The notes under the pieces are model-generated. The model was not told where the DNA came from and searched no databases. It saw only the letters and a program-made list of their open reading frames with translations. From Porphyridium purpureum (lineage: Eukaryota), in the NCBI GenBank assembly GCA_008690995.1, contig VRMN01000008.1, forward strand, positions 310,001 through 374,000: a stretch of DNA of 64,000 nt. The letters run 5' to 3'. The position numbers and the translations under genes are program-made. Below are positions 1,980 through 48,687 of the stretch, piece by piece. Position 1 is the first letter of the stretch. Each line of letters opens with the position of its first letter.

Positions 1980-4715
1980 CTAGAGCTCGTCCTTATCTTC
2001 ATCCTCGTCGCCTGCCTGTGGACCACTTTCATCAGACCCGTCAAACGGATCCTCAACCGCCTCATCGCCATTCTCCGTGTCAGCGCCATCCATCTCGTCA
2101 GGCCCTGGCGACTGTGAGTCCGCAGTGTCAAACGACGGCGGCGGTATTCTCTTCAGCGCCTTGAACTCGTGCTGGAGAGCATTGATGGCGTTGATTACTT
2201 CTTTTGACGTGAAAACGGGCGCCATCGTCAAGTCTCGCTCAAGCTGCTCCACGTACAAGGCGTCCAGGCTTTCTTGCTTTTGCTTAACCAGCTCAAGAAA
2301 TTCTTCGAACTTGCTGACATGCTCAGACGGCCCCATCTTGTGCAACGTCAACAATAGCGTCGCGTTCTGAGTAATCTCGTCTACAAATTTGTCCAGGGAT
2401 TCCTTCGTTTCCTCACGGATAGAGCGCTCATCGTGGCGAAAGAATAGCTCCGAAACAAGCGCCTCCAATTCCTTGAGCTTACCACGCAGATTCGCAAGCG
2501 ATTCGGCCTCATCTGACCACATCCATTCCTCAGCTTCGCTCGTCCACTCAATGATACGAGCACGCTCTGCCTCGGAACTCACTGCCTCGAAACTTTCTTC
2601 TGCCATCGCCGATCGCGCGTGCAAAATTCTTCCTTCCAGAGCGTTGTACGCATCCGCCTTGTCCCGACGATCTTTGTCGGCAGCTGCCAAAGCGCGCAAT
2701 TGCCGCTGCATGCGGTCAATCTCATTGTCCGACAAACCCAAACGTCGAACTGAAGGGTCATCTAGTTCCTGGATGTGAAGCGTTTCTCGATACACCACTG
2801 TTTTGGTGGACGTCTCTATCCGATACTCGACCTCTTCCTTTCCGGCTTCCCGCGATTGCTCCTGATTCGACTCTTCAGGCTGGGGCGTAGGCGCTTCCGA
2901 CGATGCCGACTTTGATTCAGGGTTTCCGCCGGCCTCGTCGCCGGTCCGTGCTTCTGTATTTTCTCCTGCCTTTGTTGAATCAGTCTCCGCCTTCTTGCTT
3001 TTCGCTTTCACGGGTACACGCCTTTCCGTTGTTACTTGCTCATCTAGCTGAGCTTCACCCCTTGAAAAAGTGACCAGCCCAGATTCCGACATGTCGAAGA
3101 CCAGCGTAACCTTTGCCGCCGGCGCGTCCTCCACGGACGTGTTCTGGAGCTTCCGGTACACCTTCGCTGCCCCAGAAACATTCACGCGTCGAAAGATGAA
3201 ATCGCTGTTCGTGGAGGTATCATCTACACCGGCGGACAAAAGCATATCAACCACAAAGTCACCACGGCGCTTGAGCGTGATCGATTTTTTGCCGGGACAC
3301 TTGGAGTCTGCATCGTTAAACACAAGCGTGCGCTGCGAGCTCTTCGTGCTGTCAGCTTCACGATGTACGTCAATGGCCACTTTGCTGCCGCCCATGTACA
3401 CATCCTGCATCTCTAGTGGCTTGACACGGTACGATGTCGACATGCTAGCGGCGAGGTAAGCGGCGCCGTACACCGCTGCTTCGTCCGCGTTTACACTCTT
3501 GTTCAGCGTCGTACGGCCAGTCAGTTCTAGCAATTCTGCCTGAATGCCGGGTATGCGGGACAAACCACCAAAAGGAACGACCGAGTCAATGTCCTCGATA
3601 GACGATAAGCCTGCTTTCCGCAAAGCCTCACGGATAGGCGCGCCTACGCGGGCGAGCAACGGTCGCGCCATGTCCTCCAGGTCTGCGCGCGTCACGAGCT
3701 GGCGAAAATCTATGTCCTCCCATATCGACTCGACCGATGCATAAGCTTCTTGATTGGCAGACAGTACTTCACGCACGCGCTGCGCCTCGCGACCAAGCCG
3801 CACCATGACGCGCGGCAGGTCGCGTGAGCGCGGCTGCGACGCTAACGACGTCCCATCCAGCACTCCTCGTTGCTCATCAAATTTAGATGCCAAATGCTGT
3901 GCTAAAAGCTCGTCCAAAGCGGCGCCGTTCAGCTCGAGGTCATGCGCGTGAGCAAGCGCTTTTACAACTGTCTTTTCGTTCTTCTTCCCTGTCCTAGCGA
4001 CCTGGATGACCGACGCGGTACTGCTGCTTGCCCCGAGATCGTAGAAAAGGACAGTTTCATTGTCCTTGTCCGATTTCCAGTCGAGCGCGTACTTGATGGC
4101 CAGCGCGGTGTTCGTGGGCACGAGCGCCAACACGTTGAGGTCTGCCAACCTGGCGGCATCCATCACTGCAGTTTTGGCCGAGAGCGAGTACCAGCTCGGA
4201 ACCGTGATGACCACATCACGTACAGCGCTGGGGCTTTGCGCAAGTGACGCAGCTGTAAACACGCGGCCAAGATCTAGCAGCATTGCTGTGACTTCTTGCG
4301 CGGTGAACACCAGCGAGTTGCTTTCATCCACGACAAACGTAGCGCGTTGCTGAACGCACTCGTCAAGTTCCTCGTTCGATTTCAGAAGCGTAGCATCACA
4401 AGCCGCCAGCGCATCACGCGTGAGCAGCAGCGCGCGCTGTGGCTTCTTTGCGGCGACAGCCAAGGCGGCGTCGCCAAACACGCGCGCATTCTCCGCTGTG
4501 AACGCCACCGCCGCAGGAGTCTTACGCTTTGCCTGCTCATTTACCACCAGATCCACTCCTCGCCGCGGAAAGATCGTCGCGACCTTGATGTACTGCGAGC
4601 CCAGATCAATGCCCATCAACGCGGCATCGCTGCCTCTCCCTGCCGCCAACGCCACCACCAGCAGCGTCAGCAGCGCGCACACATACGTAGCCGCGCGCAT
4701 CGCAGCAGCAGACAT
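1980..4715 (-). CDS. HYOU1: ER-lumenal Hsp70-family chaperone/nucleotide exchange factor GRP170/HYOU1
   Basis: Signal peptide, GIDLGSQY, NEQAKRKTP, FYDLGASS, GGLSRIP, NADEAAVYGA, C-terminal KDEL. Confidence 0.92.
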   Translation of the reverse strand: MSAAAMRAATYVCALLTLLVVALAAGRGSDAALMGIDLGSQYIKVATIFPRRGVDLVVNEQAKRKTPAAVAFTAENARVFGDAALAVAAKKPQRALLLTRDALAACDATLLKSNEELDECVQQRATFVVDESNSLVFTAQEVTAMLLDLGRVFTAASLAQSPSAVRDVVITVPSWYSLSAKTAVMDAARLADLNVLALVPTNTALAIKYALDWKSDKDNETVLFYDLGASSSTASVIQVARTGKKNEKTVVKALAHAHDLELNGAALDELLAQHLASKFDEQRGVLDGTSLASQPRSRDLPRVMVRLGREAQRVREVLSANQEAYASVESIWEDIDFRQLVTRADLEDMARPLLARVGAPIREALRKAGLSSIEDIDSVVPFGGLSRIPGIQAELLELTGRTTLNKSVNADEAAVYGAAYLAASMSTSYRVKPLEMQDVYMGGSKVAIDVHREADSTKSSQRTLVFNDADSKCPGKKSITLKRRGDFVVDMLLSAGVDDTSTNSDFIFRRVNVSGAAKVYRKLQNTSVEDAPAAKVTLVFDMSESGLVTFSRGEAQLDEQVTTERRVPVKAKSKKAETDSTKAGENTEARTGDEAGGNPESKSASSEAPTPQPEESNQEQSREAGKEEVEYRIETSTKTVVYRETLHIQELDDPSVRRLGLSDNEIDRMQRQLRALAAADKDRRDKADAYNALEGRILHARSAMAEESFEAVSSEAERARIIEWTSEAEEWMWSDEAESLANLRGKLKELEALVSELFFRHDERSIREETKESLDKFVDEITQNATLLLTLHKMGPSEHVSKFEEFLELVKQKQESLDALYVEQLERDLTMAPVFTSKEVINAINALQHEFKALKRIPPPSFDTADSQSPGPDEMDGADTENGDEAVEDPFDGSDESGPQAGDEDEDKDEL

Positions 4716-4753
4716 CCGCTTCTCGTGCGCGATCCTTCACCTACTCACCATAG

Positions 4754-4818: not shown

Positions 4819-5264
4819 CCCACCGCCCACGCATGTCCTTTCGAGCTTGCGATCGCGCGGCTGTGCCGTTTTACTATAGCCGCCATATGAAAAAGCAACA
4901 TTCAATCAACTTGGAAGGTACACTCTTGTACACTTCACGTCGGTTTTCGGCTACACCCTTTTCGGTTTAGAGCCAATAAACCGTTTCGCGCTTCAGCTGT
5001 CGGCCAAGCACCCATGCGCAAAACACTTGGGCTTCCCCTGGTCGAATCAACCGTGGCCTGCTACAAGTATGTCTTTACTTCAAAGGAAAATGGCCAACTT
5101 GGCAGCGCCGCTCGATGCGTGCGCGCCATCTTGTACTGTGAAGCATGCGGCCTAATCAGACGAAAGACTTTCTTGCGTTCGTGCCCTCTGCACATCATCC
5201 ACATTTGTGCAGCACATGAAGTTTAGCCTCAACTGAGGCAGCAACTGCAGAAGTTCCAGGTTTG

Positions 5265-6472
5265 TGAGCTCCTCGCCAGTGTCCTCCAGACTTTGTAGTA
5301 CCCCCCGTTCGGTGTGCTTTAACGCTCTATAGTGCCGACGAGCTCGGATCTCTTCGACGGAAGGACAGCCTCCATACGCTTTCCCTGCGTCGCCGCACCT
5401 TGCTCGAGCAAGATCTCTGAGATTGAACTTGGCAACTTCTTTGGACGCCCGACCGCCAACGCGCACGATACTGGTTATGCCTTGCTTGACCAGGTCACCG
5501 AGGAAATCATCCAAGGCATGGTTGGTGTACGTAATGCAAAGGACCTTCTTCGACGTGTTCCGACAGATAATATCTGCAAGACAAACCCCAAAAAAGCTCT
5601 TTCCAGATCCAGGCCCGCCAACCGTGACCGAACAGCGAACGTTGCAGGCCATCCGTAGCGCATCGCGCTGACGTTCGTCCAGCTTGAAGCCGGCCTGCGC
5701 TTCAATCCTCTCGATTTCGTCCTCAACCTTTACGTGCGCTAAGTAGGTTGCTGCTTTCGGCTCCTGCTTGTACACGAGTTCTTCTGCAAGCGCCACGCAA
5801 GCCTGGCCTTGCAAAGAACGCAGGACCGGCCCGTACGAGAAGAGGCTCTGTCCGGCCTCAATCAATCGCCAGCCAGGAAGAACACCACGCCCCACGTTCT
5901 TGAGAAAGCGCGCCAATCTTACACACGAGGCCTCACTATTACCATGCATCACCAATCCAACCGACGGCGTCGGACCATGCTGGTCGAAAAACTCCCACTC
6001 ACTCATTCGACTCGGATCAGCCGCGCTGGGCGGCCGCTGCACCACAAACACTTCCTGGACGGTATTTTCTGAGCACACTAGACATACCAGCGAATCTCGC
6101 GGAAGCACCCGCAGACCGCGTTTCGACTGCCAAAATTCGACCAGATCTCTTTTCTTCTTCATGTCGTTCTTTCCTGCCTTCCGACACAGCTGCGCTGCGT
6201 ACGCGGACCGCGGGAACCGGAAGGCAAATTCCAAGCATGGCTGGCGACCAAGTTCAATGCCCACACACTGCACATCAGTAAACACGTGATGCTGGTGCTT
6301 CTTGGGATTCCGCGCCATCTCTCGCAGGGTGTCGCGGATCGGACACAAAAAGTCCTCACGCAACAAACGAAACTGGCGTTCCTGCAGCGCTGCCTCGCTC
6401 GGGTTGTCCTCTTGCCTGGGAAGATACGGCTCGAGGGGGCTGTTCAACTCTTCAATGGTTGGAACAATTCGG
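5265..6472 (-). pseudogene. Partial duplicate (about 1.2 kb) of the ZNFX1-like helicase gene, copy of 12902-14109
   Basis: Constant offset of 7637 bp; only about 5 substitutions seen; in-frame stop directly upstream, no native start; ends after helicase motifs I/Ia. Confidence 0.9.
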
Positions 6473-6750: not shown

Positions 6751-9700
6751 TTAATTCAACTTTGATGAATAAATGAAATGCGATCTGCCTGCACATCGCC
6801 AGCCGTCGCCTTCGGGACACCACGAATATCCGGCGGGACACACTCCAATCGATTTCAATTGCAGCTGGTTCGCAGCCATCTTTGCACGCTCCTTCTCGCG
6901 CTCTACTTCTTCCAGCGCTTCCAGCCTCAAGATTTCGGAAATCTCGAAACGGTTCCGAGCGGAAATGGAACAGAGAACGCTCGAAACTTGAGCACGTAGA
7001 ACGCGCTCAACGACGGCCTTGTCGGCGCCGGTGTCTTTGCGAACATATTCCAGAATTTCTTCGTCGAATGGTCCACCGGCTTGAATGAGAGCAAGCATAT
7101 TCTGGAGCTTTTGGCGGCTTGGAAGGTCCCTATCGTACCCAAGCGCCACGCAGGCGGCTTCCAGAGCGGCCAGCATAGAATCGTCCTCATCATTGTCGTC
7201 GATCGCTGGTTCACTCCCATACTCATCTTTCTCTACGACATTCTCCATAGGAACAGGATTCGCTGCTAAAGGCGTGCTGGACCTGCATCAGCGTTTACGT
7301 ATGAACCCATTTAGTTTGAGCTGTGAATCGAACTTGCGACCAACAAAGACGGAAAATTCTTTCTTTCTTCGAGAATTTCGCGCAAGCCATTCTGCAGGCA
7401 ACCCTGTGTGACAACCAACGAACCTCTTCGCACGCACTCCCTGAGTACGCGCTTGCACCACAAGTCCACATCATGCCCGTTTGCAAATCCAGGGCTGGTT
7501 ACCAACAGTTCCGCAAAGACAATGCCTTTCGCCTTGGCCTCGTGGTCCAAGGACTTGCCAGCCTTTTTGAGCTGCATTTGTAGCAACTGCCACGTGTTGC
7601 TCGCATCCAAAACGTCAAAGCGGATTGTCTGCGTCACACGCGATTTGAGGCCGGGATTCACCTTGCTCATCATCTCCTCAATTTTAGCCTCGTACCCGGC
7701 AAAAACGACCACCATTTTGCCCTTGTAGGCATCTTCCGTGAGCAAGTTGACAATCTCGTCAACTGTCTCCTTCATGAATGACCTACCGCTGGGGTCGTAC
7801 AGACGATACGCCTCGTCGATGAATAAAACCCCGCCTCGCGCCGCTTCAAACTTCTCTCGTGTTACATTTCCCGCCTGACCGACGTACCGTGTCTGCAAAT
7901 CAGAGGCCGAGCACTGCACAAACGTCTTGCCATCCGCCAGAAGGCCTAACGCTTCAAACATTTCACCCATGCGCCTAGCGACAGTCGACTTTCCTGTTCC
8001 AGGCGGGCCTACAAACTTGAAGTTCAGCTCTATACTCTCCATTGGATCCCGCCCATGACGCTCGGCGTCTCGAACGAGCGCCTGGATATCGCTTAGCTGA
8101 TTGCGAACGGAATTGCACCCTATGAGCCCATCTAGAACAATCAAAGGATCGGCTGCTCGCGCAGCCGCTGCTTCATCCTGCTCGGGCACAAAGTCTTGTG
8201 CGAGGAGCTCATTCGCAGCGGCGCGCTCTACTGGACCCAAATGCTGCATTCGTTTCTCAGCCCGCTGGGCGGCAGCTTGTATCAGAGTCGCCACGGCTCC
8301 GCCGTTTCCAAAGTTGGGCTTCATGCGGTCCTTTGCAAGTCGCTCCACAGCTTTCCTCAAAGCTTCCGGACAAACGACCACTTTCTTCTCTTTTGCCATC
8401 TTCAGTAAAATTTGACACAGCTCGGTATCATTATAATCTTCGAACACAAATGGTTCATCTGCCTGGAAGCGCCGCTTGAGACCCGGGTTCGAATAGCGAA
8501 TAAAGTCGTCCATCTCTTTCGTGTAGCCACACATCAACACGCAACGATCATCCCCTGGAACACCTTGCACCTCGGCAACAAGGGTGTCTAACACAGCTCT
8601 TTTGTATGGGTCCTCGGACCAAGACATTCCTCCAATCTTACTTTTCGACGGGCCTAGACCGTACGCTTGGTCAATGAAAAGCACGCAACCCTTCGAATTC
8701 TCAAGAATCGCCCTCGTCTTCTTTTCAGACTCCCCAAGAACGCTTCCGATGAAATCGCTCGGATTCTTCACAATCAGATCACCTTTCGAAAGCAGTCCCA
8801 ACTCCTTCAGCATCCGCCCGTAGAGCTTCGCGCAAGTGGTCTTACCTGTGCCTGGATTTCCAACAAAAAGTCTATTCAAAAGTACTCCCTTCATTGGCTT
8901 TTCTGCCTCCTCGAGTTCGGCGTTCGTCTGAAGCACTTGAAAAAGCGTGGACATAGACTCCTTGACCATGCGCAAACCAATTTGGTTCTGCAGCTCCTTG
9001 AATGTCGCAGAATCGAGCATTGACTGCACATGGGGACCGAGCAAATCTTCTCGAACAAACTCAAAAGCGTCTGGATTACCACCTTTCCCTCGCACTTCAA
9101 CAATGCGGCCAGCCTGCTTCTCCTGGACTACTTCGACAAAACTACGAACCGCTCTGGCATTACCAAAGCCAACATGGCCTCGGCCCTTGCCGATTCGCCG
9201 CGAGGCAATGCGCATGTGTTTGGGATCTGGAAGCTTGTAGTTTTTCAACGAGCGGAAGCGGCTTTCCATAATTATGTAGAGCTCCTCGTCTGTGAAATCT
9301 TCAAAGTCATAGACGGCGTGGAAACGGGACAGAAGACCTTCGTTGTATTCCAACAAGTCCTCCATTTCCTTCTTGTACCCCGCAAAGACCACCACCAGTT
9401 TCCCCCGACACTCCTGCATTTCTGTGAGCAGAGTATCCAAGATCTGTGCACCAATGGAGTTCTTGGTGGGTTTCAGCTGGTACGCCTCATCGATAAATAG
9501 AACCCCAGCCTTTTCGACCCATCTCACTCGATTCCGTGCAAAGACTGATGTCGAGCCCAGCTCCTTTTCATCGAATTGAATATGCATGTCATTCCCGGTC
9601 AATGCACTGAACGTCACTCTACCAGGAACCCACGCACCTTTCTCCAGAACATCTGTTTCAACTCTAGCTCCACGTGGGATTGGAGACACGCCATCATCTC

Positions 9701-12700
9701 GCACCCTGTCCAGCGCTCTTCTCAATTCCGCAACCCCACCACGTAACAATTTCGACCCCGTCGTTTCCTCGAATATGTTGCCGGGTAAAATACCGAGCTC
9801 GAAGAGCACGGACGCATAAATTCTTGCCACGGTCGTCTTGCCCACTCCAGGATTCCCGTAAAACATGGCGTTGAATTGCTTTCGACTTAAATCATCGCCG
9901 CGCTCCATGGCCAAAGTGACAAGGTCCTTGAGCTCCAAAAGCTTGTGCTTAACCTTTCGGCACCCAACCAATTCCATTGCCGCCTTCAAGGCAGGACATT
10001 GCCCGGCACGACGCTTGAACTCCTCAGCCTCGCGCCTCTCCTCGCTGCCGGCACCTTGCTTGGCTAGCACAGCATCCATCCTCGATTCCAATGCAGCAAT
10101 AATTGAGCATGCTATATCTAGGCACTCGGGAAAGAGGTCCATGAGTCCGTTGCTGCAAGCGATGCCCGAAAGCGCGAATCCGTACGCGTCGAGTACGTGG
10201 TCTCCATGCTTTTCGAACAAGGCGCGAGTCACGTAGTACAACGCGCTCTCGCACGAACTTTCAATCTGACGCACCTGCTCGTGAAGACCGTGAACTCTGA
10301 CATCGGACGGCATACATCCGAGCTGCAGTTCACATAACATGGTCAACATCTCTTTGACCAATCGGGCGGACGAAGATGTAGTACAATCGTCCGCAGCAGA
10401 GCTGCGGAGCAATTGGACGGCACCGACGTAATCGTTTTTTCTAAGCATCTCCCGAACGTTGCAAAGAACAGGTGGCAACACACCGTTAGGGAAGACCCTC
10501 TTTGCGCCGGAATCTTGTGCATCAACTGAACGCAATGCACTTATCAAACCCTTTAGCTCTGCAGATAGAAAGTAAAGACCCGACTGGAAATCTTCATCAT
10601 TCGTCTCATCGAGAACCTGCCTGCACAATTTCGCACCGTTCGGCGAAGAGACCGCATCGAAAATCTTCCTGCGCAATGACCTCGTCAAGACAGCCTGCAA
10701 AAGCTGTCCTTGCTTAGAACCCATGGCCACAGCCACGTGCCACTCTTTCATTTCAATTTTTTCTAGCGCGAGCTTCGTTTCCTTGTTGAGCTCGGAAAGG
10801 CTCATCGCGCTCGCGGCTTCCTTCACTTTCAGCAATTCCAATTGTTTTCGAACTTCCTTCAACTTCCGCAGGGCCTCCTCTTTCCTCCGAATAAGCTCCT
10901 GCTGAATTGCTCGCTCCACAGGTTCACGAGCATCTGCCTCGTGCATGATGGTATCCAAGGTCTGCATGCTTTTTCTTGCCTCCAATTCCTCTCTCAACTT
11001 CTTGAGTTCCAATTTATCGACCGTTTGCTTCAAGATAGCAGCCTCCTCGGCCTCAAGCGCGTCGATACGGCGGCGAAGGTCGGCTGCCTCTGCTTGTGCC
11101 TTTGTTCGCTTCAATGCTGCCGCTTCCTGAATCCTCAGGTGTTCTTTCCGGAGCTTCACCATCTCCTGCTTTGCCTGCTTTACGAGCTGAGCAAGCTCCG
11201 CGCACGTACGGCACTGCCTGCTTGCGTCGACAGGAGCTCCACATAAGGACTCAAACAAATGGCCCTTGTCACAGTATTTCGTGGTTGTCTCCATGCACTT
11301 AACATGCGTGTGCATCCGATCAAAGCCGTGACATTTGAGGGGACAATCATGGCCACAAGGCAGCCGCAATCTGCAATCACGGAGGCATCCGCCAGCGGGG
11401 CACCAGTGATCAAAGGCAGCGCGGCTGAGAAGAGGTACGTCCGGTCGAATTCCATGCTCCTGGCAGCGCGCAGGGAAGCAACGCAAAATCTGCTTCTCCT
11501 GCTGCATGCGATCCAATAAGTTTGTCCATATTTGGCGACCATAAGTATTGTAAGCATTTCTCAGCGTCCGCGCGCTCCCGAAGATTATAAGACCGTCGCG
11601 TGCTCTCGAAAGCAGCACATTCACGCGTTCGGGCTCGCTTAAAAATCCGATTGAACCGTATCGATTACAGCGCACGAGTGACGCAACAACAATCCTCGAT
11701 TCCTCGCCCTGGTAATTGTCTACTGTCGCAACGCGCACCGACCGCCTTTTCTCTTCAAACATGGACGCATCAGAACCGAGAGTATCGGATCCACTCCCAG
11801 GAGAACTGATTGAATGAGCATCAAAATCCTCACGGTCACGATCATCCAGGAAGGCACCACCGGTCATGGGATCTGCGGCTAAAGCGGCACTCAAGGCGTA
11901 CAGTTGCGCAAGGTAGGGTGTAAGCACTACTATTTCATCCGGTCGATACCCGTTTTGAAGAAGGTATCGCACAACGGCTACAACCATTTCCACTTCGTAC
12001 GCGTTAGCTTTCAATGTTGCATCTTCCTCACCGCCCGCAACTTGACTCGAGTCTTCTTGGTGGTCATGGTCGATAAACATGACATTCGAACTGACGCCGC
12101 GAATGCTTTCGCGCTTTTGCGTACCAGGACCGTCTTCTTGGTCAGGATAAGAGGGCTTAATTAAAACCGAAATCTCTGGCCTCATTCGGTGCTGCACGTT
12201 AAGTTCCCCGTGCTCAATATGCGATGACAACACTAGCCGCTCAAACAATGATACATTGAAGTTGTAGCCCTCGCGTGAGCCCGTGCTGAGCTTGTAGCTC
12301 TGTAGCTTCGGCCGCAGCTGCTGATGATCACCAATCATAATCAGATGTTCGGTCTTTTCTTGCAGCGCCGCTAGCGTGTTTGCTTCTAGCACCTCGCCAG
12401 CTTCTTCAACGATAACGACAGAGATATTGCACTCTTCTAGCAAGGCCCTGTACTTGGCGGCACCAGTTGTTGTGCACGCAATGATACGCGCGTCCATCAG
12501 AACCTGGCGATCGAGCCATTCGCCGACCAACGTCATGTCGCGCCTCAAGTCTTGCAAGCGAAGAAGGTCTACCGCACAGCGATACTGCACGTCTTGAGCG
12601 CGCTCGTCGCACCATTGGTCAACTTGCACCTTTCGGTCGGCCAGATTCATCTTCCAAACGCTAGACTCCCGCAGGGGCGACGATGAGCCGAAAAGGGGGC

Positions 12701-14960
12701 CCCGGTCCTCACCTGCAATCCAACGCCTAAACAAGGAGCTGGATTGCACCTTTTTTCCATCCTTGCCAACCATCGAGTATCCCTCACTCTCTACCAGGCC
12801 ATCGATACAAAGCTCCGCGTAAGCTTCTGGGTACTCCGAGCACAACCAATCTTTCAACGTTTCCCATGAGACATGTGCCGAACGCGCCGCGTTCAGGTTC
12901 CTGAGCTCCTCGCCAGTGTCCTCCAGACTTTGTAGTACCCCCCGTTCGGTGTGCTTTAACGCTCTATAGTGCCGACGAGCTCGGATCTCTTCGACAGAAG
13001 GACAGCCTCCATACGCTTTCCCTGCGCCGCCGCACCTTGCTCGAGCAAGATCTCTGAGATTGAACTTGGCAACTTCTTTGGACGCCCGACCGCCAACGCG
13101 CACGATACTGGTTATGCCTTGCTTGACCAGGTCACCGAGGAAATCATCCAAGGCATGGTTGGTGTACGTAATGCAAAGGACCTTCTTCGACGTGTTCCGA
13201 CAGATAATATCTGCAAGACAAACCCCAAAAAAGCTCTTTCCAGATCCAGGCCCGCCAACCGTGACCGAACAGCGAACGTTGCAGGCCATCCGTAGCGCAT
13301 CGCGCTGACGTTCGTCCAGCTTGAAGCCGGCCTGCGCTTCAATCCTCTCGATTTCGTCCTCAACCTTTACGTGCGCTAAGTAGGTTGCTGCTTTCGGCTC
13401 CTGCTTGTACACGAGTTCTTCTGCAAGCGCCACGCAAGCCTGGCCTTGCAAAGAACGCAGGACCGGCCCGTACGAGAAGAGGCTCTGTCCGGCCTCAATC
13501 AATCGCCAGCCAGGAAGAACACCACGCCCCACGTTCTTGAGAAAGCGCGCCAATCTTACACACGAGGCCTCACTATTACCATGCATCACCAATCCAACCG
13601 ACGGCGTCGGACCATGCTGGTCGAAAAACTCCCACTCACTCATTCGACTCGGATCAGCCGCGCTGGGCGGCCGCTGCACCACAAACACTTCCTGGACGGT
13701 ATTTTCTGAGCACACTAGACATACCAGCGAATCTCGCGGAAGCACCCGCAGACCGCGTTTCGACTGCCAAAATTCGACCAGATCTCTTTTCTTCTTCATG
13801 TCGTTCTTTCCTGCCTTCCGACACAGCTGCGCTGCGTACGCGGACCGCGGGAACCGGAAGGCAAATTCCAAGCATGGCTGGCGACCAAGTTCAATGCCCA
13901 CACACTGCACATCAGTAAACACGTGATGCTGGTGCTTCTTCGGATTCCGCGCCATCTCTCGCAGGGTGTCGCGGATCGGACACAAAAAGTCCTCACGCAA
14001 CAAACGAAACTGGCGTTCCTGCAGCGCTGCCTCGCTCGGGTTGTCCACTTGCCTGGGAAGATACGGCTCGAGGGGGCTGTTCAACTCTTCAATGGTTGGA
14101 ACAATCCGGATCAATCGAAAATCCACAGCGTCATTATCATGACGCCCACCCGGGCGAAAACGAGTATCGTCGAGCACGACGTGTGCAGCTTCCAGTATCA
14201 AAGTATCATCCACCTCTGAAGAGGCAAAGAGATTCTTCAAGCGGTTTGACAAAGGAGCATCGCGGGTGAGTAATTCATCCTTGAGACTGCACAAGGCAGC
14301 GTCCACTCGGGCCTCATTTGAGCACGCTGCCAGACGCACAGTGAACCAGGAAACGACAGAGAGGTCAAGTGGCTTGCTGATTGTGCCCGTCTTGAGGGCC
14401 TCGAGAAGCCTGCCGGGGAGCCCTGCTCGCAGCATGTGCTCCAGCATCTTGTTAACATGCTGCTTGGCGAGTCCAAACGCGAGCTGGTCGCCTCCAAACT
14501 TGCCGAGGAGCGGAAGAAGATCTGCAACGTTCACAGCGCGTAGCACGACGTCTCGGAGAAGGCGCTCGCCGTTTTCCGCCGGCGACGCGAGTCGAAAAAG
14601 CAGATCAACCTCATCTGAGAAACCGACGCACGCGTCGACGAACTTTTGGACCGACGCTGTGTTCTCGAACGTGAAGGTCTGGTCCTTCATAGCGCGATCG
14701 AAAAACCGACGCCACGGCGAATTCAAGCCTGGTCTACTAGCAGGCGCTCTCACGTCCGCTGGGCTTACCCGCGCCGCCAGAGTTTCTCCTCCACGAGCAA
14801 TGGCACTGCCCTGCCTTGTCTCAGAACGCCTCACGCTGCTGGGCCCAGCGGCCGGAGACCCGTCGCCTGGCGCACTTATCTTCGCGTCCCACCCATGCTC
14901 ATTTGCACGGCGCCCGCCGCGCCCACTGCCAGCATCCCCGCGCTTTCCCCGGCCCGACAT
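6751..14960 (-). CDS. ZNFX1-like SF1 (Upf1-like) helicase + NF-X1-type Zn fingers + coiled coil + three CbbX/SpoVK-like AAA+ domains + C-terminal Cys/His knuckle; predicted exons 14960-7345 and 7282-6751 (about 2715 aa)
   Basis: RHDND..DFR..IVPT..E, FRLLREDF, GPGSGKS, YTNHALD, VEEAGE, GDHQQLRP, TVDNYQGEE, RVNVLLSRAR; AAA Walker A GNPGVGKT, GNPGTGKT, GPPGTGKS; 62-nt GT..AG intron (7344-7283) joins the 165-aa ORF in frame. Confidence 0.85.
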
Positions 14961-15113
14961 TGCGCCACCTTTCCCAGATCGCGCACCTGCGTTGCCGATC
15001 CGTCCTTTATTTGTTGAGCACTCTGCGCCGGTAGCGTTGTGCGTGTATACGGTCTAACGGCTGTAAACAGAGCTGATCACTCGACCCGACACCCTCAGCA
15101 CGAGAGTCATGCG

Positions 15114-15116
15114 CAG

Positions 15117-15148
<32 letters not shown>

Positions 15149-15250
15149 GCACATGCGATACAAAGCGAAGACGAAGACGAAGATGAAGACGATGAAGATG
15201 AAGACGATGAAGATGAAGACGATGAAGACGACGATGTAGAAGACGAAGAA
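15114..15250. repeat. (CAG/CAA)n followed by (GAAGAY)n simple repeats upstream of the helicase gene
   Basis: Direct reading; explains the spurious poly-Q/poly-S ORFs. Confidence 0.85.
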
Positions 15251-16072
15251 AAGGACGAAGCAGCAGCACAGCTACAGCTACAACACCCAGGCGTGAGAGC
15301 GCGATGTGCAGTGACGCACGGCTGCATTCCGCGCTTCGGACGCACGTTCTCGCACGTGTGCACACACGGATCTCTGGAAAACATAGGTTGGTCTTGAGCG
15401 CGAGCGCTAATTCAACCATTCGTCTCGAAAGCCAAAAGATATCAGAAAAAAAGACCATTACGATAGACTCGCGTTTAGTGCTCAAAACATTGAATTTAGA
15501 GGACGTTGAAAAAGAATCATAAAATGAGACGGGTTCATTAGTAAGTGTCGGAGAGACTGTGCTGGTTTTGTGCGCTTGAAACCGTTTTGCACGGGCTGGG
15601 TGCAACGCGCGTGAGCAGGAAGACAGCGGCTCACGCTGTGATGAAATCCCGAGCGCATCCGTGCTTTGATCAAATGGTGTCGACCGACTTCGGAATAATA
15701 CGGGTGCCTGCGTCTGGCTCTTGCACCAGAACACAGACTGCGCTGTGTTCTCGCGTTTCTCTGTTGAGCATCCCGTCGCAGAGCAAAACGCATCGCCGCT
15801 GCCAGAGCACGCCAGCGCTCACAATGTATTTGGATTCGCCTGGACTCCTGGCAGCGCAGGCCAATGACCGCCCTTTCGCAAAGGAATGCCGGCGTTCTCC
15901 GTGCTCGCCAGTCGCTCTCATGGAACGTAAACATTCATGCGTGTATGCACCTCAACCGAATCATCGGTTCATTGGTTAGTGGCTTTACCTCATCTCCTGG
16001 AAGTACGGCGAGCGGAACGGTTACAGGTTGTCCCCAGCTGCTCCGTTAGCCTTTATCGACATTTGGCGTTGT

Positions 16073-19000
16073 CTAGGGCTCCTCTTGATCTTGGGGTTCA
16101 CCGCTGCTGCTTGATGAAGTGGTACCCGTGCTGTTGGTGCGGCGACCACTGCTTTGCTTGGACATGTACGCAGGTACGCGCCGAGCACGCGCATTGCGGA
16201 GAAGCAGCGCGTGAAGCAACGGACGGGGTATTTCTGGTCGCAGAGTGCCGAGTCTGAGAACCGCGCGAGTGGAGTGCACCAGCCGCGATAGCGTCACTAG
16301 GACCAACATCTGCCTCATTAATCGGTCGTGATTAGCGGCACACACATCTCGAGGATCACCGGCTGGCTCTGATTTCTCTTCCAAGGCCGCATGATCACAA
16401 TGGCAAGCTTGTGTCAGTGCGGTCATCATTTCTGACAATTTGGGTAGCTCCGCTGCAGGAGCCCTCTCGTCCAACAGGGCTTGCAGCATGTCCAGAGCCT
16501 CGTTGTCGAGCTTGACCATGTCACTTTCCTCAGACAGCACAAGTGAAGATATGATGCCCCTATCGCATGCGTCATAGTCGGCATGCGCCAGGTAAACGCC
16601 CCGCAACACGCGCATGTCGTGCGCAAGTGCACCAACAAGACGCTCCAAGTAGTCGTGGAACACGCTCGAAGTCGACTCAAGCTCGTCAATGGCGGCCACT
16701 TGCGAGCTGATGTCCCGACAGATCTTCAAAAAGAATCGAAAAACTACCGTCGACACGTAGAGCCGTGCATCAATCCCGATCAACAGACCTGGCTTTGCCG
16801 CAACGCCGTCACGCATGTAAGTCTCGGCAAGTAACATTTGGGCGCCGCATGCACCGATGACTTTGTCAAGGGCAATACTGCGGCCCACCGGCGCGCTCGA
16901 TTCAGGGCCGGCCGTTTTTCGAGCGACTGCGAGCTTCACTTTTGTGAAGGCCCAATGTAGCTTCTTGGGTGGCGCAGGAGTACTTGTCTTTGGCGCGTCA
17001 GAAGATTTGTCCCTGGTCAGAAAGGTCGGGATGCCAATGCCAAAATCCCTCAGGTGCTCTAGCGCATTTATAAAATACGCGCGAGCGTTCCATCCGCCAC
17101 CTATGGAGAATATCAGAGACAGTAGCACTTGCAAGCTGCCGCCCATGAGCACAGAGAGTGTTCTTGAGACTACGTAGTACTCGATAGTGTATGTCTCCCG
17201 CGTCAAGTACCAGTTAAGAAGAACAACAAGGTTGAACACGATTGCATTCCTGAAAAATGTGCCCCAAATCGGATTCATCGTGAAACGGGATCGGCCACCC
17301 GGGTCACGCTGGAGTGACACAAATGTGGCAATCGTGAGCACTTGCCACGCAATGACACCAACCAGCGAGTCTTGCGCAGATCGCCCTGCGGCCCACGCAA
17401 ACAAAATGCCGGTCAATCCGCCGCAGGTACGCAGCAGAGTCACCCAGACGGCACCTTCAAACGTATCTGCAGAGCATTGGACGAACTGCAGGATGGACCA
17501 CATTTCGAGCCGCGTAGCAGCTTGTTGGTTCAGAATAGGCTCGACGGCACCTTCCAGGGGAAAGGGCGTCCAGGTCCGGTACACATCACTTGCTGTGGCG
17601 GGAATGGCTAGAATGAATATTCCCAATGCCATCTTGAAACCCGTGCGTACTTCATCTTTGAAAAACCATGCGTCAGGTCCACGCCACCGCAACTGCCATC
17701 TCAGGAGCGCCACCAACGCCAAGGCCCAGTTTCCAATCATGCCCTTCAATGAAAGCAAGGTTGGACCGAGCGCCGCTGCGGCGAGAAATTTAACAACAAC
17801 CATCCACGACTTTGGCTCAAGCTCGGCAACGCAAAGCCTGCGAACAGCCTTACTCAGGCGAATGGGGCCAGAAAGATATAGATCATGAAGCAAACACTGA
17901 CGGGCATTGATTGCTGCCCGTTGCGAGTCTGTCGAGGCGTTTTGCATGTACGGGGCCCAGTCCAATGTGGAGAAGGAATCGAGAAGCGCAGTTTCCAAGT
18001 CATCGAATGCGGCCAATTTGGCCTCAACGCGTGCTCTCGTTTTGTGCCAAGAGTAAGGCGTGATGGCCGAAGTCTGTGCACAGTGCTCGAGCAGAGCGCG
18101 CGACGCGTCGAAAACGGGTTGCTGAAACTCGACCCACACGTCGTCATTCTCAATCCCCAAACCAAGCTCGTGCCTGCACAACGCCCATGTGGACATTTGG
18201 ATAATGATCGAATGGGCTGACTCGGATGCCTCCATCAGTTCCGAATCATACTTGTGCCGAAGTGACGGAGTCAGCGGTGTCGGCTCTAGCGTAGCCGCCT
18301 TCATTTTGTGCTTAATATCTGTTACAACATTGGACAGCGCAATCACCTCTTGTGTTATCTTGCGTGGAACTTTGGCTCCATCAGCGAGCTCGGCGCACAT
18401 GCGGGCCAACGTATACTGCAGGCGACCCAGCAGATGGCGCGCTTCGCCGCGGTAGAGCATGTGGGGCGGAACCATGGCAGCTGCAAAGTACAGCGAAGCG
18501 CCAACCAGGACGGCAATTAGAATGCTCGAGCTACTTTTCACAAGCGCCGAGCTAGTTGACCACAGGAATTTCGAAATCATCCACATTCCCGGCAGTACAC
18601 CGACTTCGAGCCCACTCTCGGTTCTTTGGGCGAAAATTTCCAAATCTGATAGCCCAAGCATCGCCAAGCGCTCCTGAAGGACCGCTATAACGTTTTCAGC
18701 CAATGATGCCAGATCGTTGGGCCATTCCGAAATAGGCGGCAATCCAGAGTAAGGGACGGTGATGCTGATGCCTGAAACAAGGAATTCAAAGATGCCAAAA
18801 AAGACAAAGTTCCAGATGAGAGCTACGAACTTGAAATTCGTAATTCCCACCTGGGCACATTTGCCAGCACGTCCAAACGCGAACAGACAAAAGACCACCA
18901 AGATCGACACGAGGCCAAACCACTTGTTGACGATTGTGCAGACTGCGGTGAAAGAAGCGACGCAAAGGGCCAAAAGAAACCAAACCAGAAAAGAACTCAC

Positions 19001-19606
19001 AAAGACAATGCCCCCGCCAATGCCCGCAGACATGGCCCAGAGCAAAAAGTACGCAATTGCGACAAGCAAGCCAAGAGAACTGCTTGTCAAAGTCAGATAG
19101 GTTGCCGGGACTCCAAACGCGGCGCACATGACAAACAAATGCACTCGGACGCCCACGAGAAAGCGGGGCTTGAACCCTGTCCAAGAGGCGTCGCGCAAAG
19201 GATCCTCCCAGTCATCGGGTAGTAGTAGCAAGTACTCTGCATATGTCTGCTCGCTGCATTCGTGCCCAGTCTGCAGCCTTTTTCGCCTAGGAACCAAACG
19301 TTTTAAGTAACGCCATGCGCCTGCTCGGCGGCTGCTCACCCTTCCCCAAAGCTTCTGCCGCGACGCTTTCCCTTCATGTGGCGCGTGTTCCGCGTTGTCG
19401 CCATCGGGGGCGCCGCCATCACTCCCATCTGGCGTGCCAGCCATTCCAAAACTGCTCGAGAGCAGCTCTACCGCGTGCTCACGCTCTTCTTCCGTCAACT
19501 CGAGCAGTTCCGGCGATGCTTCATCGTAGAGTTCTGCCACAGCCGAGAACAGTTCAGCATCCTCAAACCCATCCGCATCAGCGGAAACATTCTCATCAAG
19601 CCCCAT
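16073..19606 (-). CDS. Polytopic membrane protein, ALMT/FUSC (aromatic acid exporter)-like, two TM blocks
   Basis: 1177-aa ORF with two clusters of hydrophobic helices; RTGFKMALG and TFEGAV...LLRTCGGLTG segments typical of FUSC/ALMT-like exporters. Confidence 0.6.
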   Translation of the reverse strand: MGLDENVSADADGFEDAELFSAVAELYDEASPELLELTEEEREHAVELLSSSFGMAGTPDGSDGGAPDGDNAEHAPHEGKASRQKLWGRVSSRRAGAWRYLKRLVPRRKRLQTGHECSEQTYAEYLLLLPDDWEDPLRDASWTGFKPRFLVGVRVHLFVMCAAFGVPATYLTLTSSSLGLLVAIAYFLLWAMSAGIGGGIVFVSSFLVWFLLALCVASFTAVCTIVNKWFGLVSILVVFCLFAFGRAGKCAQVGITNFKFVALIWNFVFFGIFEFLVSGISITVPYSGLPPISEWPNDLASLAENVIAVLQERLAMLGLSDLEIFAQRTESGLEVGVLPGMWMISKFLWSTSSALVKSSSSILIAVLVGASLYFAAAMVPPHMLYRGEARHLLGRLQYTLARMCAELADGAKVPRKITQEVIALSNVVTDIKHKMKAATLEPTPLTPSLRHKYDSELMEASESAHSIIIQMSTWALCRHELGLGIENDDVWVEFQQPVFDASRALLEHCAQTSAITPYSWHKTRARVEAKLAAFDDLETALLDSFSTLDWAPYMQNASTDSQRAAINARQCLLHDLYLSGPIRLSKAVRRLCVAELEPKSWMVVVKFLAAAALGPTLLSLKGMIGNWALALVALLRWQLRWRGPDAWFFKDEVRTGFKMALGIFILAIPATASDVYRTWTPFPLEGAVEPILNQQAATRLEMWSILQFVQCSADTFEGAVWVTLLRTCGGLTGILFAWAAGRSAQDSLVGVIAWQVLTIATFVSLQRDPGGRSRFTMNPIWGTFFRNAIVFNLVVLLNWYLTRETYTIEYYVVSRTLSVLMGGSLQVLLSLIFSIGGGWNARAYFINALEHLRDFGIGIPTFLTRDKSSDAPKTSTPAPPKKLHWAFTKVKLAVARKTAGPESSAPVGRSIALDKVIGACGAQMLLAETYMRDGVAAKPGLLIGIDARLYVSTVVFRFFLKICRDISSQVAAIDELESTSSVFHDYLERLVGALAHDMRVLRGVYLAHADYDACDRGIISSLVLSEESDMVKLDNEALDMLQALLDERAPAAELPKLSEMMTALTQACHCDHAALEEKSEPAGDPRDVCAANHDRLMRQMLVLVTLSRLVHSTRAVLRLGTLRPEIPRPLLHALLLRNARARRVPAYMSKQSSGRRTNSTGTTSSSSSGEPQDQEEP

Positions 19607-20154
19607 TGCGCTGCGCGCTGTCTACCAGCGCTCTACGCACGTCGCTATTCACGCGCGCAGGCTGACCCGTTGAGAGCCGTTGATGCAGCGACACACATCC
19701 TTGCCATGGAACATCGGGACTCACCGAATTCGGAATCGGCGCCCAGCCGGAATGCAAAGTTCTATTAAAACTACCCCAACATATCATATGTTGAGCGAGC
19801 ACGTTCCCTTTCTGACCACACCCCCACCTCGCCAGCTCAAGCTCGCCACCAAACACGCACACGCGTCCAACTGTACCGCATTCAAAATAGAGTATGGTAC
19901 AGTGCATACAGTTTAGAATTATGACGTACAGTGAGCGGCAAGGTGAAGGGAAGAAAGGCGAGAGCGGCTGCGAGAGGTGGGGGGTGTGTGTTGTGTGACG
20001 TTTGGAGGGACTGTGGCGCTTCCAGGACACGGCGCTGGGTAAGCCGGTGGTTTGGGCTTGAGTACGGACTGCAGAATAGGTAGTCCGGGTGGCTTGGGGT
20101 GGTGGTGGCGATTGAGAAAAAGGGAGTCGGCTGAGCATTCCGTGTCGGAAGAAT

Positions 20155-25133: not shown

Positions 25134-27139
25134 GCAAGCAATCTGCGACGCACCAAAGCTACTGCGCAAGGCAGTTCGCCCTTCCTCAGCGTGGCTGAGA
25201 GGGTGCTTGGATTGTAATGGGCCACACGCTGGATGACTCCCCAGCCGCTGGAGGCGCATATCTCTCACACGACGCTCAGCTTTTGGCATGATCCAGACAA
25301 GATCCGGTTTCGACGAATGCGCCGAATCCAGTCCCAAACCCACCTCTATGCCGCCGCGAACGCACAAACCATTCGACACAAAACAGAAACACCAAGCTGC
25401 GGAAACACCTGCGCTTCGAATCACGCAACCCGGACAAGCACTCGATCACCGGCCAGGCACACCACAGTACGGGACGGAACAAATCCTGGAAGAGGCAGAG
25501 GATTAGATGAAGACCATGCGAGCGCGGAGAAAAGCGTGGAATGGTGCCGCACGAATGAACGCCTGTATCTGCCGACGTCACGATTCACCTTGCTCTTCTC
25601 CGCATCCTTTCTGTCGCGTCCATCTGAATCCCTGGAAGCAAGCGCGCACATAGTGCAACTGTACCATATGAAATGAAAGGAGGTACACCTCGTCTTCAAT
25701 ACGCGCTGTACCTCGGCAGCGAATCCGTCGCAGGCACCGAGGAACCGCGGTTGTCGAACGCCAAGCGGTGGCTGTGTCAGCGCGCGCTGTTCGACAACGC
25801 ACGCGCACCATTGGAAAGTCAGACACGAGCCCGTCGAATGCGCTTCCAGACAGTGCCCTTCGAGTACGCTTCGAGGTGCGAGGTGACAAGGTCACAGAGC
25901 CTTTCGTGTTTGAGGACAATGTGGAGTCGTAAAAATGGCGGCGTTGGGACAGGAGGCTGTTGTCATTCATTCTTCTCTCCGTTCCTTTCTCGCGTCCTTT
26001 CTACCTCTCCTGGCTCCTCCAGTTTGAACTTCTTTTGATTGGGAACAGAAAAATGGCCCTTTTTGTTTGTCCTAAGTGGTGGCGTCTCGTCCAGGCAAGC
26101 GTCAGAAGCCGCCTTTTGTTCGTCAGCCGTGGAAGAGACCGATTCTTGCTGAGGCCATGCGTCTGGCTCATTGCTTTCCTGGCTGACGTCGATTTCCAAG
26201 CTATTTTTTTCGCCGCGAATACGCCGACCAGCCTGGATTTGACGTGCCATGTACATAGTCCGAAGCGTCTTGATGCTTTGAATCGTCGTTATCATTGACT
26301 TCATGAGCTTTATTGTCACTAATTCACGACACTGGCGCCCCTCCTTGTTTGCAGCAGACTTGTGACGCGAAGCGATGTTTGCAGAGCGTCCCCACCGTGG
26401 GCGTGCTGGCCCTCAGTCCCGTCTGGCCTTCGCAAGGCCCTGAATGCGGCCTTTCTGCTGTTTCGAACACCCAACAATGCGTCCTATTCCGCTAAAATGA
26501 AGAAATCCACCAGGTGCGATGGCTGCGCATGTCTGCGCTTTCTTCTCACATCTTGTCGGCGTTCAGGATAAGCCGCTTCCCCGTCCAGTCCCGTTCCACC
26601 CGATCCGGACCCTCGTCGCCGAGCAAGCCGCTCCAAACGGCCAAAGCTCAAGACCCTGTCGTCAAGCAAAGAGTCTTGATATCTTTCCACCTCACTGCTT
26701 TTACGTTGGGAGAATAAGCGTTGTTGCGCGTCGTTGCGTGTGTCCGTTGTGCACATTGTCCACTATGCGCAGTTGCGTTTTGGCTCTTGGATGAAAGCCG
26801 AGTTGCTTTTATGTGAGGAGATTAACGCCTGCGTGCGTTTACTGGGCGCAGCGTGCGGCAGATCCAGCGTTCAACGACTTTCCCGTCAGTGAGCCTGTGT
26901 TTGTCAAATTGTTCGTGCAGATCGGCTCATCCGCCAATACGCTCTCGCTTTCTCCTGGTTTTGAAGTCTGCTGATTTGAGGTGCGCGAGCGGTTGATAAC
27001 TGAAGGATGGGAAGGAGAGGGAGAGACGGAGGGTGGAGACCGGGATCAGCACGGCGTTGGGAAGGAAGAGCTGTGGGATTCTAGCGGGTAGGTCGGTGGG
27101 TCGCGACTTGCCGGATCTCCCGGAGAGCGTGTGCTTAGA

Positions 27140-37588: not shown

Positions 37589-37749
37589 CTGAGTAATGGC
37601 CAAACACGCGCGTTGTCCCTGTTGTAGGAAACGCCTTCCCACTCTGTGTGCACCGCGTGTCACAGTCCCTCGACTGTACACACACGGTGCTCACCTCCTG
37701 TTCTTCCTTGCTGCCAAAGGACCGTTGTGCAGCTTCCCAACACCTTGTA

Positions 37750-38008
37750 TGTCAATCCCTACGGATCCGAGAGCCGAGTTGCCAAGCTATCTCGGCGACC
37801 CAAGAAAGTTTTATGAACTCTTCTTCTTTTCTGTCGACTCTGTCTGTTTACTTTTTGACGGCTAGGCCGGCCGCGACTCGGCGTAGTTTTATACTAGGGC
37901 TAGCAGGGAGAGAGATGGAGACCCTCATCATAACCAAGTGGTTATATTGAGGGGGGCTGTACCCATGTGGGTACAGCGGTAGTTAATTAATTATTTAATT
38001 AATTGACA
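37750..38008 (-). repeat. 3' LTR (259 bp)
   Basis: TGTCAAT..ATTGACA termini; identical by eye to 43169-43427. Confidence 0.95.
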
Positions 38009-38454
38009 CTCCAGTATTTTTCTGCTGGGCCATGTTATAAAATTCATTAAAACATGAGACCAACGTGGGGCAGGGGCGCACGAGATGACGAGAAGAGGAG
38101 CAAGTTCATCTCGATGAGAACAGATTGCGAGAATGAAATTTCGAGAACGCCAACGCAGCGAGTACCCGAGGAAAGTCCCCCGCACGAAAAAGCTGACCTA
38201 TTGGCGACGGAGAAGGCGTTTCGCGAGGGACTGCGCAAGGCGAGAATCGGTTTGCGGGCAGAATCACTTGGGTGCATGTCGGACACGGTGCCTGCGATGG
38301 GCGAACGGTCGTCGGAATCATCCATGGTGTGCCACGAAACCGTTGCAGACAGAACTTGAACGGAAATGGTCGGCGTCTTGACCATGAACTTGCATGGGTT
38401 ACGCTGCGAGCTGGCGTCAGCACCTACAAATGGTGCGACAGGACGCGGGCCTGA

Positions 38455-41505: not shown

Positions 41506-41540
41506 GTCGTAGTCCGAATATAGGGGTCCCGAATTGGTTA

Positions 41541-43118: not shown

Positions 43119-43168
43119 CTGTCTTCAGCCACTTGTATTCTTTCACCGTTAGGAACGTAATTAGCTAA

Positions 43169-43427
43169 TGTCAATCCCTACGGATCCGAGAGCCGAGTTG
43201 CCAAGCTATCTCGGCGACCCAAGAAAGTTTTATGAACTCTTCTTCTTTTCTGTCGACTCTGTCTGTTTACTTTTTGACGGCTAGGCCGGCCGCGACTCGG
43301 CGTAGTTTTATACTAGGGCTAGCAGGGAGAGAGATGGAGACCCTCATCATAACCAAGTGGTTATATTGAGGGGGGCTGTACCCATGTGGGTACAGCGGTA
43401 GTTAATTAATTATTTAATTAATTGACA
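43169..43427 (-). repeat. 5' LTR (259 bp)
   Basis: Identical by eye to 37750-38008; followed by TSD TTGTA. Confidence 0.95.
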
Positions 43428-48598: not shown

Positions 48599-48687
48599 TT
48601 TTCCGTGCTGCGGCTTGCCGCACGCAGTGTCTGCGCGGGCACTAGCCGGAGTCGGGATTGTGGGACAGCTGGCCAGCCCAATGAGCC

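Follow-up and report, generated by a model that had tools for sequence, protein, structure and literature searches.

A 64,000-nucleotide stretch from the red alga Porphyridium purpureum (assembly GCA_008690995.1, contig VRMN01000008.1, positions 310,001 to 374,000 of the forward strand; hereafter the window, with position 1 its first letter) carries on its minus strand a gene that joins a ZNFX1-type superfamily 1 (SF1) RNA helicase to three CbbX/SpoVK-type AAA+ modules. This helicase-triple-AAA architecture, held in one reading frame, is real and far beyond chance. It is an unstudied design of a widespread, eukaryote-wide family that spans fungi and many algae and that is tentatively read here as an RNA-switched remodelling machine. 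The window copy itself is a damaged member of this family.

The frame is free of stops from 15053 to 7311 on the minus strand and, from an ATG at 14960 to a stop codon at 7313-7311, encodes 2549 amino acids (aa). Residue numbers count from 15053, the frame start of the collected sequence P0001, and not from the ATG. The first 2514 aa are identical to the annotated P. purpureum protein KAA8492860.1, a database match that establishes the algal host suggested in a preliminary description made from the letters alone. Pfam matches comprise the AAA_11/AAA_12 helicase (residues 578-919 and 933-1161; E 6e-29 and 9e-35), three AAA stretches (E 2e-40) and AAA_lid_6. The order along the chain is armadillo-like region, ZNFX1-type SF1 helicase, short zinc stalk, coiled coil and three CbbX/SpoVK-type AAA+ modules. 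The preliminary description had considered that helicase and AAA parts might be separate genes, and both were found within the one frame. Its proposal of a single protein holds for helicase, zinc stalk and AAA modules, and fails for the length of about 2700 aa with the terminal knuckle, which sits in a different frame beyond the stop at 7313-7311. The features of the frame are as follows.

7311..14960, minus strand: main reading frame of 2549 aa, counted from the ATG to the stop (frame scan and match to KAA8492860.1)
14169..14741, minus strand: armadillo-like region at the N-terminus (about residues 105-295), a homologue of the pre-helicase region of ZNFX1
11484..14156, minus strand: ZNFX1-type SF1 RNA helicase, about residues 300-1190 (Pfam, profile and column conservation)
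11202..11465, minus strand: zinc stalk, 16 conserved Cys/His, probably about four sites (conservation and alignment to PDB 9q9z)
10779..11201, minus strand: charged coiled-coil-like segment of low conservation, read from the sequence without a predictor
10029..10766, minus strand: helical linker of about 240 aa (low-confidence model)
9039..9980, minus strand: AAA1, with Walker A/B, arginine finger and sensor-2 Arg kept and the aromatic pore loop missing (column conservation)
9519..9665, minus strand: five-strand insert within AAA1 (predicted structure; 9 of 362 collected proteins)
8184..8996, minus strand: AAA2, with the Walker B Glu changed to Gln at residue 2129 (codon 8669-8667)
7359..8156, minus strand: AAA3, which alone among the modules has an aromatic pore loop (Y2390); its sensor-2 Arg is His at residue 2527 here (column conservation)

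Comparison with solved structures places the helicase next to ZNFX1. The single sequence scores 287 bits against ZNFX1, 88 against UPF1, 68 against Aquarius and 44 against Sen1, and a 31-sequence family profile widens this to 602, 210, 164 and 118 bits. Judged by score rather than by a rooted outgroup tree, the helicase appears much closer to the ZNFX1-type clade than to UPF1, Aquarius or Sen1, the housekeeping grouping that had been named as the alternative. The complete set of SF1 motifs reported earlier is confirmed by Pfam and by the catalytic columns. K606, the Glu-Glu Walker B (E883-E884), Q912, H955-R956, Q1115, R1150 and R1152 are conserved in 115-119 of the 119 relatives to which all such counts refer, the Glu-Glu pair in every one. 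A long 1C insertion (~660-855) separates the ZNFX1-aligned stretches by about 200 aa, and lobe 2A holds a family-specific acidic insertion (~1060-1102). In the portion of a ZNFX1 preprint drawn on here, a Glu-Glu Walker B and a long 1C insertion of 290 aa are described as ZNFX1 features (bioRxiv 10.1101/2025.10.14.682297).

The likeness appears to extend to both sides of the helicase. By sequence, the family profile from position 35 onward aligns with the 9q9z chain from residue 233 onward, reaching through 233-410, and the armadillo-like region is common to 34 other collected proteins besides P0001 and P0003. Downstream, the 16 Cys/His at residues 1197-1284 are kept in 114-118/119 relatives and align to the start of the ZNFX1 zinc stalk. 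The NF-X1-like zinc fingers of the preliminary description stand as conserved residues aligned with that stalk, and not as a Pfam zf-NF-X1 match, of which there was none.

Human ZNFX1 (PDB 9q9z) and the window gene thus have in common the armadillo-like region, the SF1 helicase, the Glu-Glu Walker B, the long 1C and the first stalk zinc sites. They differ in the extent of the stalk, with about four zinc sites here and twelve predicted NFX1-type fingers in ZNFX1, as part of one report gives it (PMC13710534); in the extra acidic insertion in lobe 2A of the window family; and above all in what follows. In place of a Miz or RZ ligase, the window gene has the coiled coil, the linker, three AAA+ modules and a Cys2-His tail, so that the E3-ligase output required for ZNFX1 immunity is absent. 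No Pfam match to an RZ finger was obtained among the window proteins, and no conserved Cys/His column lies between residue 1284 and AAA1, a stretch in which no search was aimed at Miz. As far as these alignments indicate, the window helicase belongs to the helicase clade of ZNFX1 without being an animal-type ZNFX1.

The three AAA+ domains recognised earlier are confirmed by Pfam and by NCBIfam, which labels the modules SpoVK, EccA and CbbX-like (TIGR02880/02881/03922), each below its curated cut-off. Walker A, Walker B and the arginine finger are present in all three modules in 117-119/119 relatives. Beyond this common core the modules diverge. AAA2 across the family has neither a sensor-2 Arg nor an aromatic pore residue. 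Its Walker B Glu is kept in 119/119 relatives and is Gln in both P. purpureum public proteins; a Walker B Glu-to-Gln change usually blocks ATP hydrolysis. The AAA3 pore residue is Tyr in 99/119 and Phe in 19/119 and is aromatic in no other module. The AAA3 sensor-2 Arg is found in 111/119 relatives, is His in the window copy and is Arg in a contig of sequencing run X11. CbbX requires an aromatic pore loop to thread its substrate, according to part of one study (PMC5385338).

A separate phylogeny of the AAA part supports this division. In a quick tree of 73 modules, AAA1, AAA2 and AAA3 form separate branches (Shimodaira-Hasegawa approximate likelihood-ratio support 98, 100 and 99), each spanning fungi and algae and each including one module of a jakobid-labelled protein; bacterial-type multi-module AAA proteins fall outside all three. 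The separation by position therefore implies that the three positions have fixed, different jobs. One branch per position, the jakobid-labelled module included, likewise suggests that the triplet had either a single early origin or a single spread, the unrooted tree giving no order of events.

Each module resembles CbbX (the red-type Rubisco activase, 3syk), SpoVK and EccA1 (9lur), with AAA3 keeping the aromatic pore loop. The family differs from CbbX in carrying three modules per chain fused to a helicase, and in lacking the aromatic pore residue in AAA1 and AAA2. The CbbX equivalog cut-off of 459 bits is not reached, the score being 316 bits summed over several stretches, and nothing points to a Rubisco role for these modules.

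A structure predicted for residues 1410-2573 is confident over the AAA part (mean predicted local distance difference test score, pLDDT, 83) and yields CbbX-like modules with a D1-D2-like arrangement of AAA2 and AAA3. The top single-domain match is CbbX 3syk (Z 24.5), and the top Foldseek rows are p97/Cdc48. AAA2 and AAA3 together (model residues 607-1157) align jointly with tandem D1-D2 protomers: Rix7 over 458 residues (root-mean-square deviation, rmsd, 5.5), NVL over 478 residues (rmsd 6.1) and Pex1/6 over 466 residues (rmsd 6.3). The predicted tandem geometry thus resembles the type II unfoldases p97/Cdc48, Rix7/NVL and Pex1/6, and would favour stacked rings. With 14-19% identity, a different AAA clade and three tiers rather than two, the likeness would be one of working only. 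An alternative layout, which is judged unlikely, sets the three modules side by side, so that two chains close one six-part ring in the manner of dynein or RNF213. Three modules times two chains do give six, and all three modules have the arginine fingers and Walker motifs, although either layout needs these; a flat ring would have just two aromatic pore loops of six, and the predicted AAA2-AAA3 geometry fits the D1-D2 stacks instead.

The five-strand insert of AAA1 looks like an SH3/KOW/Tudor-like barrel in the model. It gave no PDB sequence match, Pfam KOW/ProQ_C hits (with the insert of relative P0126) stayed below cut-off, and ESM Atlas leads were weak. The length of the linker is similar in many algal members, against a family-wide median of about 60 aa.

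The family was delineated by a sequence search that returned 1050 matches among 7983 scored candidates. The best 120 are mostly fungi, and among these 120 are also green algae, a haptophyte, a cryptophyte and a pelagophyte; the fungal helicase-AAA fusions named in the preliminary description are thus present among the relatives. Relative P0004 is 48% identical over the whole query, and a simple pattern finds four P-loops in 102/119 relatives. Helicase-less triple-AAA and helicase-only proteins exist too, many of them probably partial gene models, and the helicase is found in other red algae and in diatoms. A separate phylogeny of the helicase part, computed with no outgroup, intermixes fused and short forms (16 changes versus 17.3 when shuffled) and places one RZ-bearing protein among them. 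The fusions, annotated in fungi and algae as "P-loop NTPase / stage V sporulation protein K / NFX1-type", have the same domain order as the window gene. The window lineage adds the AAA1 insert, the longer linker and a helical tail domain; the window copy differs further in being truncated and in Gln2129 and His2527. No study of the fusion was found in the literature covered, which left aside subscription papers and bioRxiv supplements that possibly hold domain surveys.

Several side observations concern the membership of the family. Two helicases labelled whitefly (Bemisia tabaci; P0304 and P0329) nest within ascomycetes on the helicase tree, by contamination or transfer. Helicase relatives P0288 and P0331 carry PF00644, and the fused protein P0015 carries PF00091/PF03953, which we take to be PARP and tubulin, respectively; either the same sensor has further outputs in these proteins or the gene models were merged. 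In a metagenome scan the helicase was found on 6 of 77 loci. At L005, L012, L013, L016, L020, L043 and others there are open reading frames (ORFs) 800-1400 aa long that hold 2-4 SpoVK-type modules, have no helicase in their vicinity and are likely bacterial. A viral origin was rejected: a single-protein scan of viral contigs gave 0 relatives among 4 candidate stretches, and among the best 80 of 228 loci from a profile scan none had the helicase, with no fused gene in either.

The carboxy-terminal end of the family carries a conserved tail, which in the window is cut off from the frame.

7270..7313, minus strand: break, consisting of stop codon 7313-7311 and a gap of 7 bases near 7270 when compared with a read-through form (sequencing-run contigs)
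6916..7194, minus strand: disconnected tail, helical bundle (confident model, pLDDT 84)
6778..6840, minus strand: disconnected terminal knuckle, a beta hairpin bearing two Cys and one His (sequence and model)

A terminal Cys knuckle lies on the same chain in 112/119 relatives (96 of the window type, 16 with another Cys motif; 7 have neither). In 84/97 cases the tail motif consists of two Cys and one His, and a knuckle Gly kept in 91/91 scored relatives is Arg in the window copy. The helical bundle ahead of the knuckle was seen in 16 collected relatives besides both Porphyridium sequences, all algal-type members. Its fold gave no Foldseek match at E 0.001; the best VIA Z was 5.9, among unrelated helical chains, and ESM Atlas returned nothing usable. 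An RZ finger is defined, in the part of the ZNFX1 preprint used above, by four metal ligands plus a catalytic Cys and His (bioRxiv 10.1101/2025.10.14.682297). Because the knuckle offers two Cys and one His against the six residues needed, it is not an RZ ubiquitin-ligase finger. The preliminary description had placed the knuckle on the same protein; in the window it belongs to another frame (6751-7287) with its own upstream stop, beyond the stop codon and the 7-base gap.

The public model KAA8492860.1 (2690 aa) reaches the knuckle by fusing the main frame to the knuckle frame through a predicted intron at 7419-7283. If this intron were spliced out, the copy would be intact, a reading that we regard as very improbable. 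The 137-base intron has GT and AG ends and restores the frame, and NCBI adopted it; dozens of other GT/GC-AG pairs restore the frame likewise. No splice joint over 7050-7650 was listed in 4 of 4 sequencing runs, and unspliced contigs cross both intron ends in X9 (recorded as RNA), X11 and X16 (guessed to be RNA). Contigs drop rare variants and show neither strand nor level, so that minor splicing could escape them, and stretches lacking contig cover were not counted as evidence. The contigs of X9, X11 and X16 are identical to the window over 7100-7347, and additional contigs cross 7419. Splicing would, moreover, delete residues 2546-2564, the last AAA3 lid helix (pLDDT >90), which is present in 61/66 relatives. 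Rescue of the tail by the intron was rejected on account of these unspliced contigs and the loss of the helix. A single programmed frameshift was also rejected: with a further stop immediately upstream in the tail frame, the rescue would take two events.

The same three runs contain a second form that needs no intron. In X9, X11 and X16 a sense codon replaces the stop and, with 7 extra bases, the frame reads through; the extra bases were seen in X11 and X16, and X9 shows the sense codon with a loose end there. Run X1, possibly the source of the window, has the stop-bearing form only. The downstream residues of the second form agree with the tail of KAA8492707.1, a second public protein on another contig that differs at 1 residue over the first 2411 and is just 85% identical in the tail. 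The window copy is a damaged family member because the second form keeps the knuckle in frame; it likely ends before the conserved tail and is impaired. Beside this, the public model of the second copy (P0003) looks out of frame across the AAA3 Walker B, at window 7506-7820, and misses part of the lid; an X11 contig over 7318-8494 is gap-free, so this model may be wrong too.

The two forms show 51 differences, of which 40 are listed; among those listed, 28 codons alter the residue and 4 are silent, near the ratio expected without constraint. At 287 conserved columns the window copy deviates 19 times, against a median of 2 and 6 for P0004. Decay of the whole gene, hinted at by these deviations, was not upheld by relative-rate tests (3/36 at p<0.05, none in the most conserved class). 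Several points weigh against damage that reaches beyond the break, or against the reading of the contigs. The main frame is open over 7.6 kb, and the rest of the gene is without general acceleration; set against its closest relative, the window copy carries no surplus of changes at the most conserved columns (helicase 7-8 vs 5-6, AAA 9-13 vs 7-10; p>=0.26). X11 and X16 are labelled RNA on a guess, and contigs were compared with no silent control stretch. The window copy is nonetheless a poor example of the active machine, because it is truncated and carries two catalytic substitutions (Gln2129 and His2527).

From these elements, the family is tentatively read, with a little less than even confidence, as an RNA-switched remodelling machine, likely for surveillance of foreign or faulty RNA, whose mechanical output would come from stacked AAA rings with AAA3 gripping. 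By homology, the helicase would be idle until single-stranded RNA binds, as in human ZNFX1, and RNA binding would cluster the proteins. The human helicase is autoinhibited and activated by RNA, as a portion of the preprint describes (bioRxiv 10.1101/2025.10.14.682297). Six chains would then assemble, AAA1, AAA2 and AAA3 each forming a ring, with the rings stacked as in p97 or Rix7 on the single-chain model. The AAA3 ring would grip and pull protein off RNA, and AAA1 and AAA2 would set assembly and timing; the tail knuckle, adjoining AAA3, would be a partner- or substrate-binding site and not a ubiquitin ligase. In the window copy the tail would go untranslated, AAA3 would work without its sensor-2 Arg, and AAA2 would bind ATP and barely hydrolyse it.

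Several observations count against such a machine. The stacked geometry derives from one predicted single chain, at an rmsd of 5-12 Å. A simple scan of insertion 1C for a plug helix found the most acidic stretch of 1C only modestly acidic and weakly conserved, in a profile-aligned part that is incomplete. No experiment on any family member was found in the literature, and nothing in the window matches the fungal head-to-head neighbour described below (best E 0.04). On the favourable side, the best PADLOC profile for the helicase is MkoA of the Mokosh anti-phage system (209 bits, E 5e-62). Only the helicase core is shared, with no MkoB-type nuclease match, and the MkoA profile matches more than one million eukaryotic proteins, immune or not, according to part of the source (bioRxiv 10.1101/2022.12.12.520048). 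The match says little because the profile is unspecific in eukaryotes.

Two other roles were weighed. In one, considered somewhat unlikely, the family is a small-RNA silencing cofactor like Hrr1 or worm ZNFX-1, the helicase holding transcripts for an RNA-dependent RNA polymerase (RdRP) and the AAA rings recycling complexes. The long 1C of the window helicase fits this, being common to ZNFX1 and S. pombe HRR1, an RNA-interference helicase, in the preprint passages used (bioRxiv 10.1101/2025.10.14.682297), and small RNAs are reported in P. purpureum in part of another source (PMC12026948). Against it, a Pfam scan of 14 long window ORFs gave no RdRP, Argonaute or Dicer family match; the trees did not include Hrr1 or SAD-3. 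The other role, quite unlikely in our estimate, is housekeeping RNA quality control with no defence function: the protein would strip ribonucleoprotein that is stalled or faulty, perhaps together with a nuclease that removes caps. All four NTPase sites are very strongly conserved even between distant members (115-119/119 relatives), which speaks for it. So does a conserved head-to-head neighbour in 2 of 5 fused loci examined (L014:1903-2955 and L027:1942-3171, both on the minus strand), whose products are 47% identical and have no Pfam or PDB sequence match. Several paralogues per species, the intermixing of fused and short forms, two alternative tail types (96 and 16 of 119) and the broken copy and partial duplicate found here are harder to reconcile with a housekeeping gene. 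By its likeness to ZNFX1, an immune or silencing role of the window gene is plausible, as was proposed at the outset, and the RNA-switched remodelling machine remains the preferred reading.

The partial duplicate lies downstream of the tail and forms a direct repeat with the interior of the gene.

12891..14109, minus strand: repeat copy A, inside the gene, residues 315-721 (self-comparison)
5253..6472, minus strand: repeat copy B, 1220 bp, 99.3% identical to copy A, 279 bp beyond the tail

Copy B carries a fragment ORF of 388 aa (6318-5155). An assembly artefact was rejected for copy B: contigs of X3 and X9 contain its joint with unique DNA, and the fragment ORF is present in the public annotation. 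The direct repeats 5253-6472 and 12891-14109 could delete the intervening 7.6 kb. In one X18 contig the flank upstream of copy A is joined to the flank downstream of copy B and 7637 bases are omitted; this joined form could reflect a deletion or the merging of contigs where depth is low. Depths in X3 (unique 130, repeat 402, flanks 206-296) fit 1:3:2, a hint only, as depth is not copy number.

Elsewhere in the window, simple repeats with periods of 3 to 30 lie at 15113-15260, just upstream of the gene. The upstream same-strand neighbour (16073-19621) is an 1182-aa ORF with hydrophobic segments and no Pfam match even at E 1, and the downstream neighbour (1980-4736) is an Hsp70-family gene, read as Hsp110/GRP170-like. 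Farther away are a DUF2252 ORF (27092-28996), of a family described from bacteria and possibly transferred into the red alga, and a SNF2 helicase with an HSA domain (48685-56250). A Ty1/copia-like element at 37749-43427 has identical 260-bp terminal repeats (37749-38008 and 43168-43427) and separate frames for a zinc-knuckle ORF (41541-43124) and a reverse-transcriptase ORF (38455-41574); it looks recently inserted.

A bolder form of the surveillance idea, speculative and in our view unlikely as a whole, would make the family an ancient eukaryote-wide antiviral machine. Foreign RNA would assemble a three-tier AAA+ ring that tears viral ribonucleoprotein apart; animals and land plants would have lost it or would use the E3 form, ZNFX1. 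Porphyridium would keep intact, truncated and deleted versions next to one another, like fast-turning immune genes, and the first ring of some algal members would have gained an RNA- or methyl-reading barrel.

What this analysis adds to an already annotated gene is modest: how far the family ranges and how labour is divided among its three modules. The public P. purpureum model hides a stop codon behind an unsupported intron, which is a warning for its use, and an intact relative is a better object for bench work than the window copy. In animals, ZNFX1 turns RNA sensing into ubiquitin signals; the sister design, kept in fungi and in red, green and brown-lineage algae, would turn sensing into mechanical work. 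If true, this would show that the sensor has a second output and would supply a candidate algal antiviral effector.

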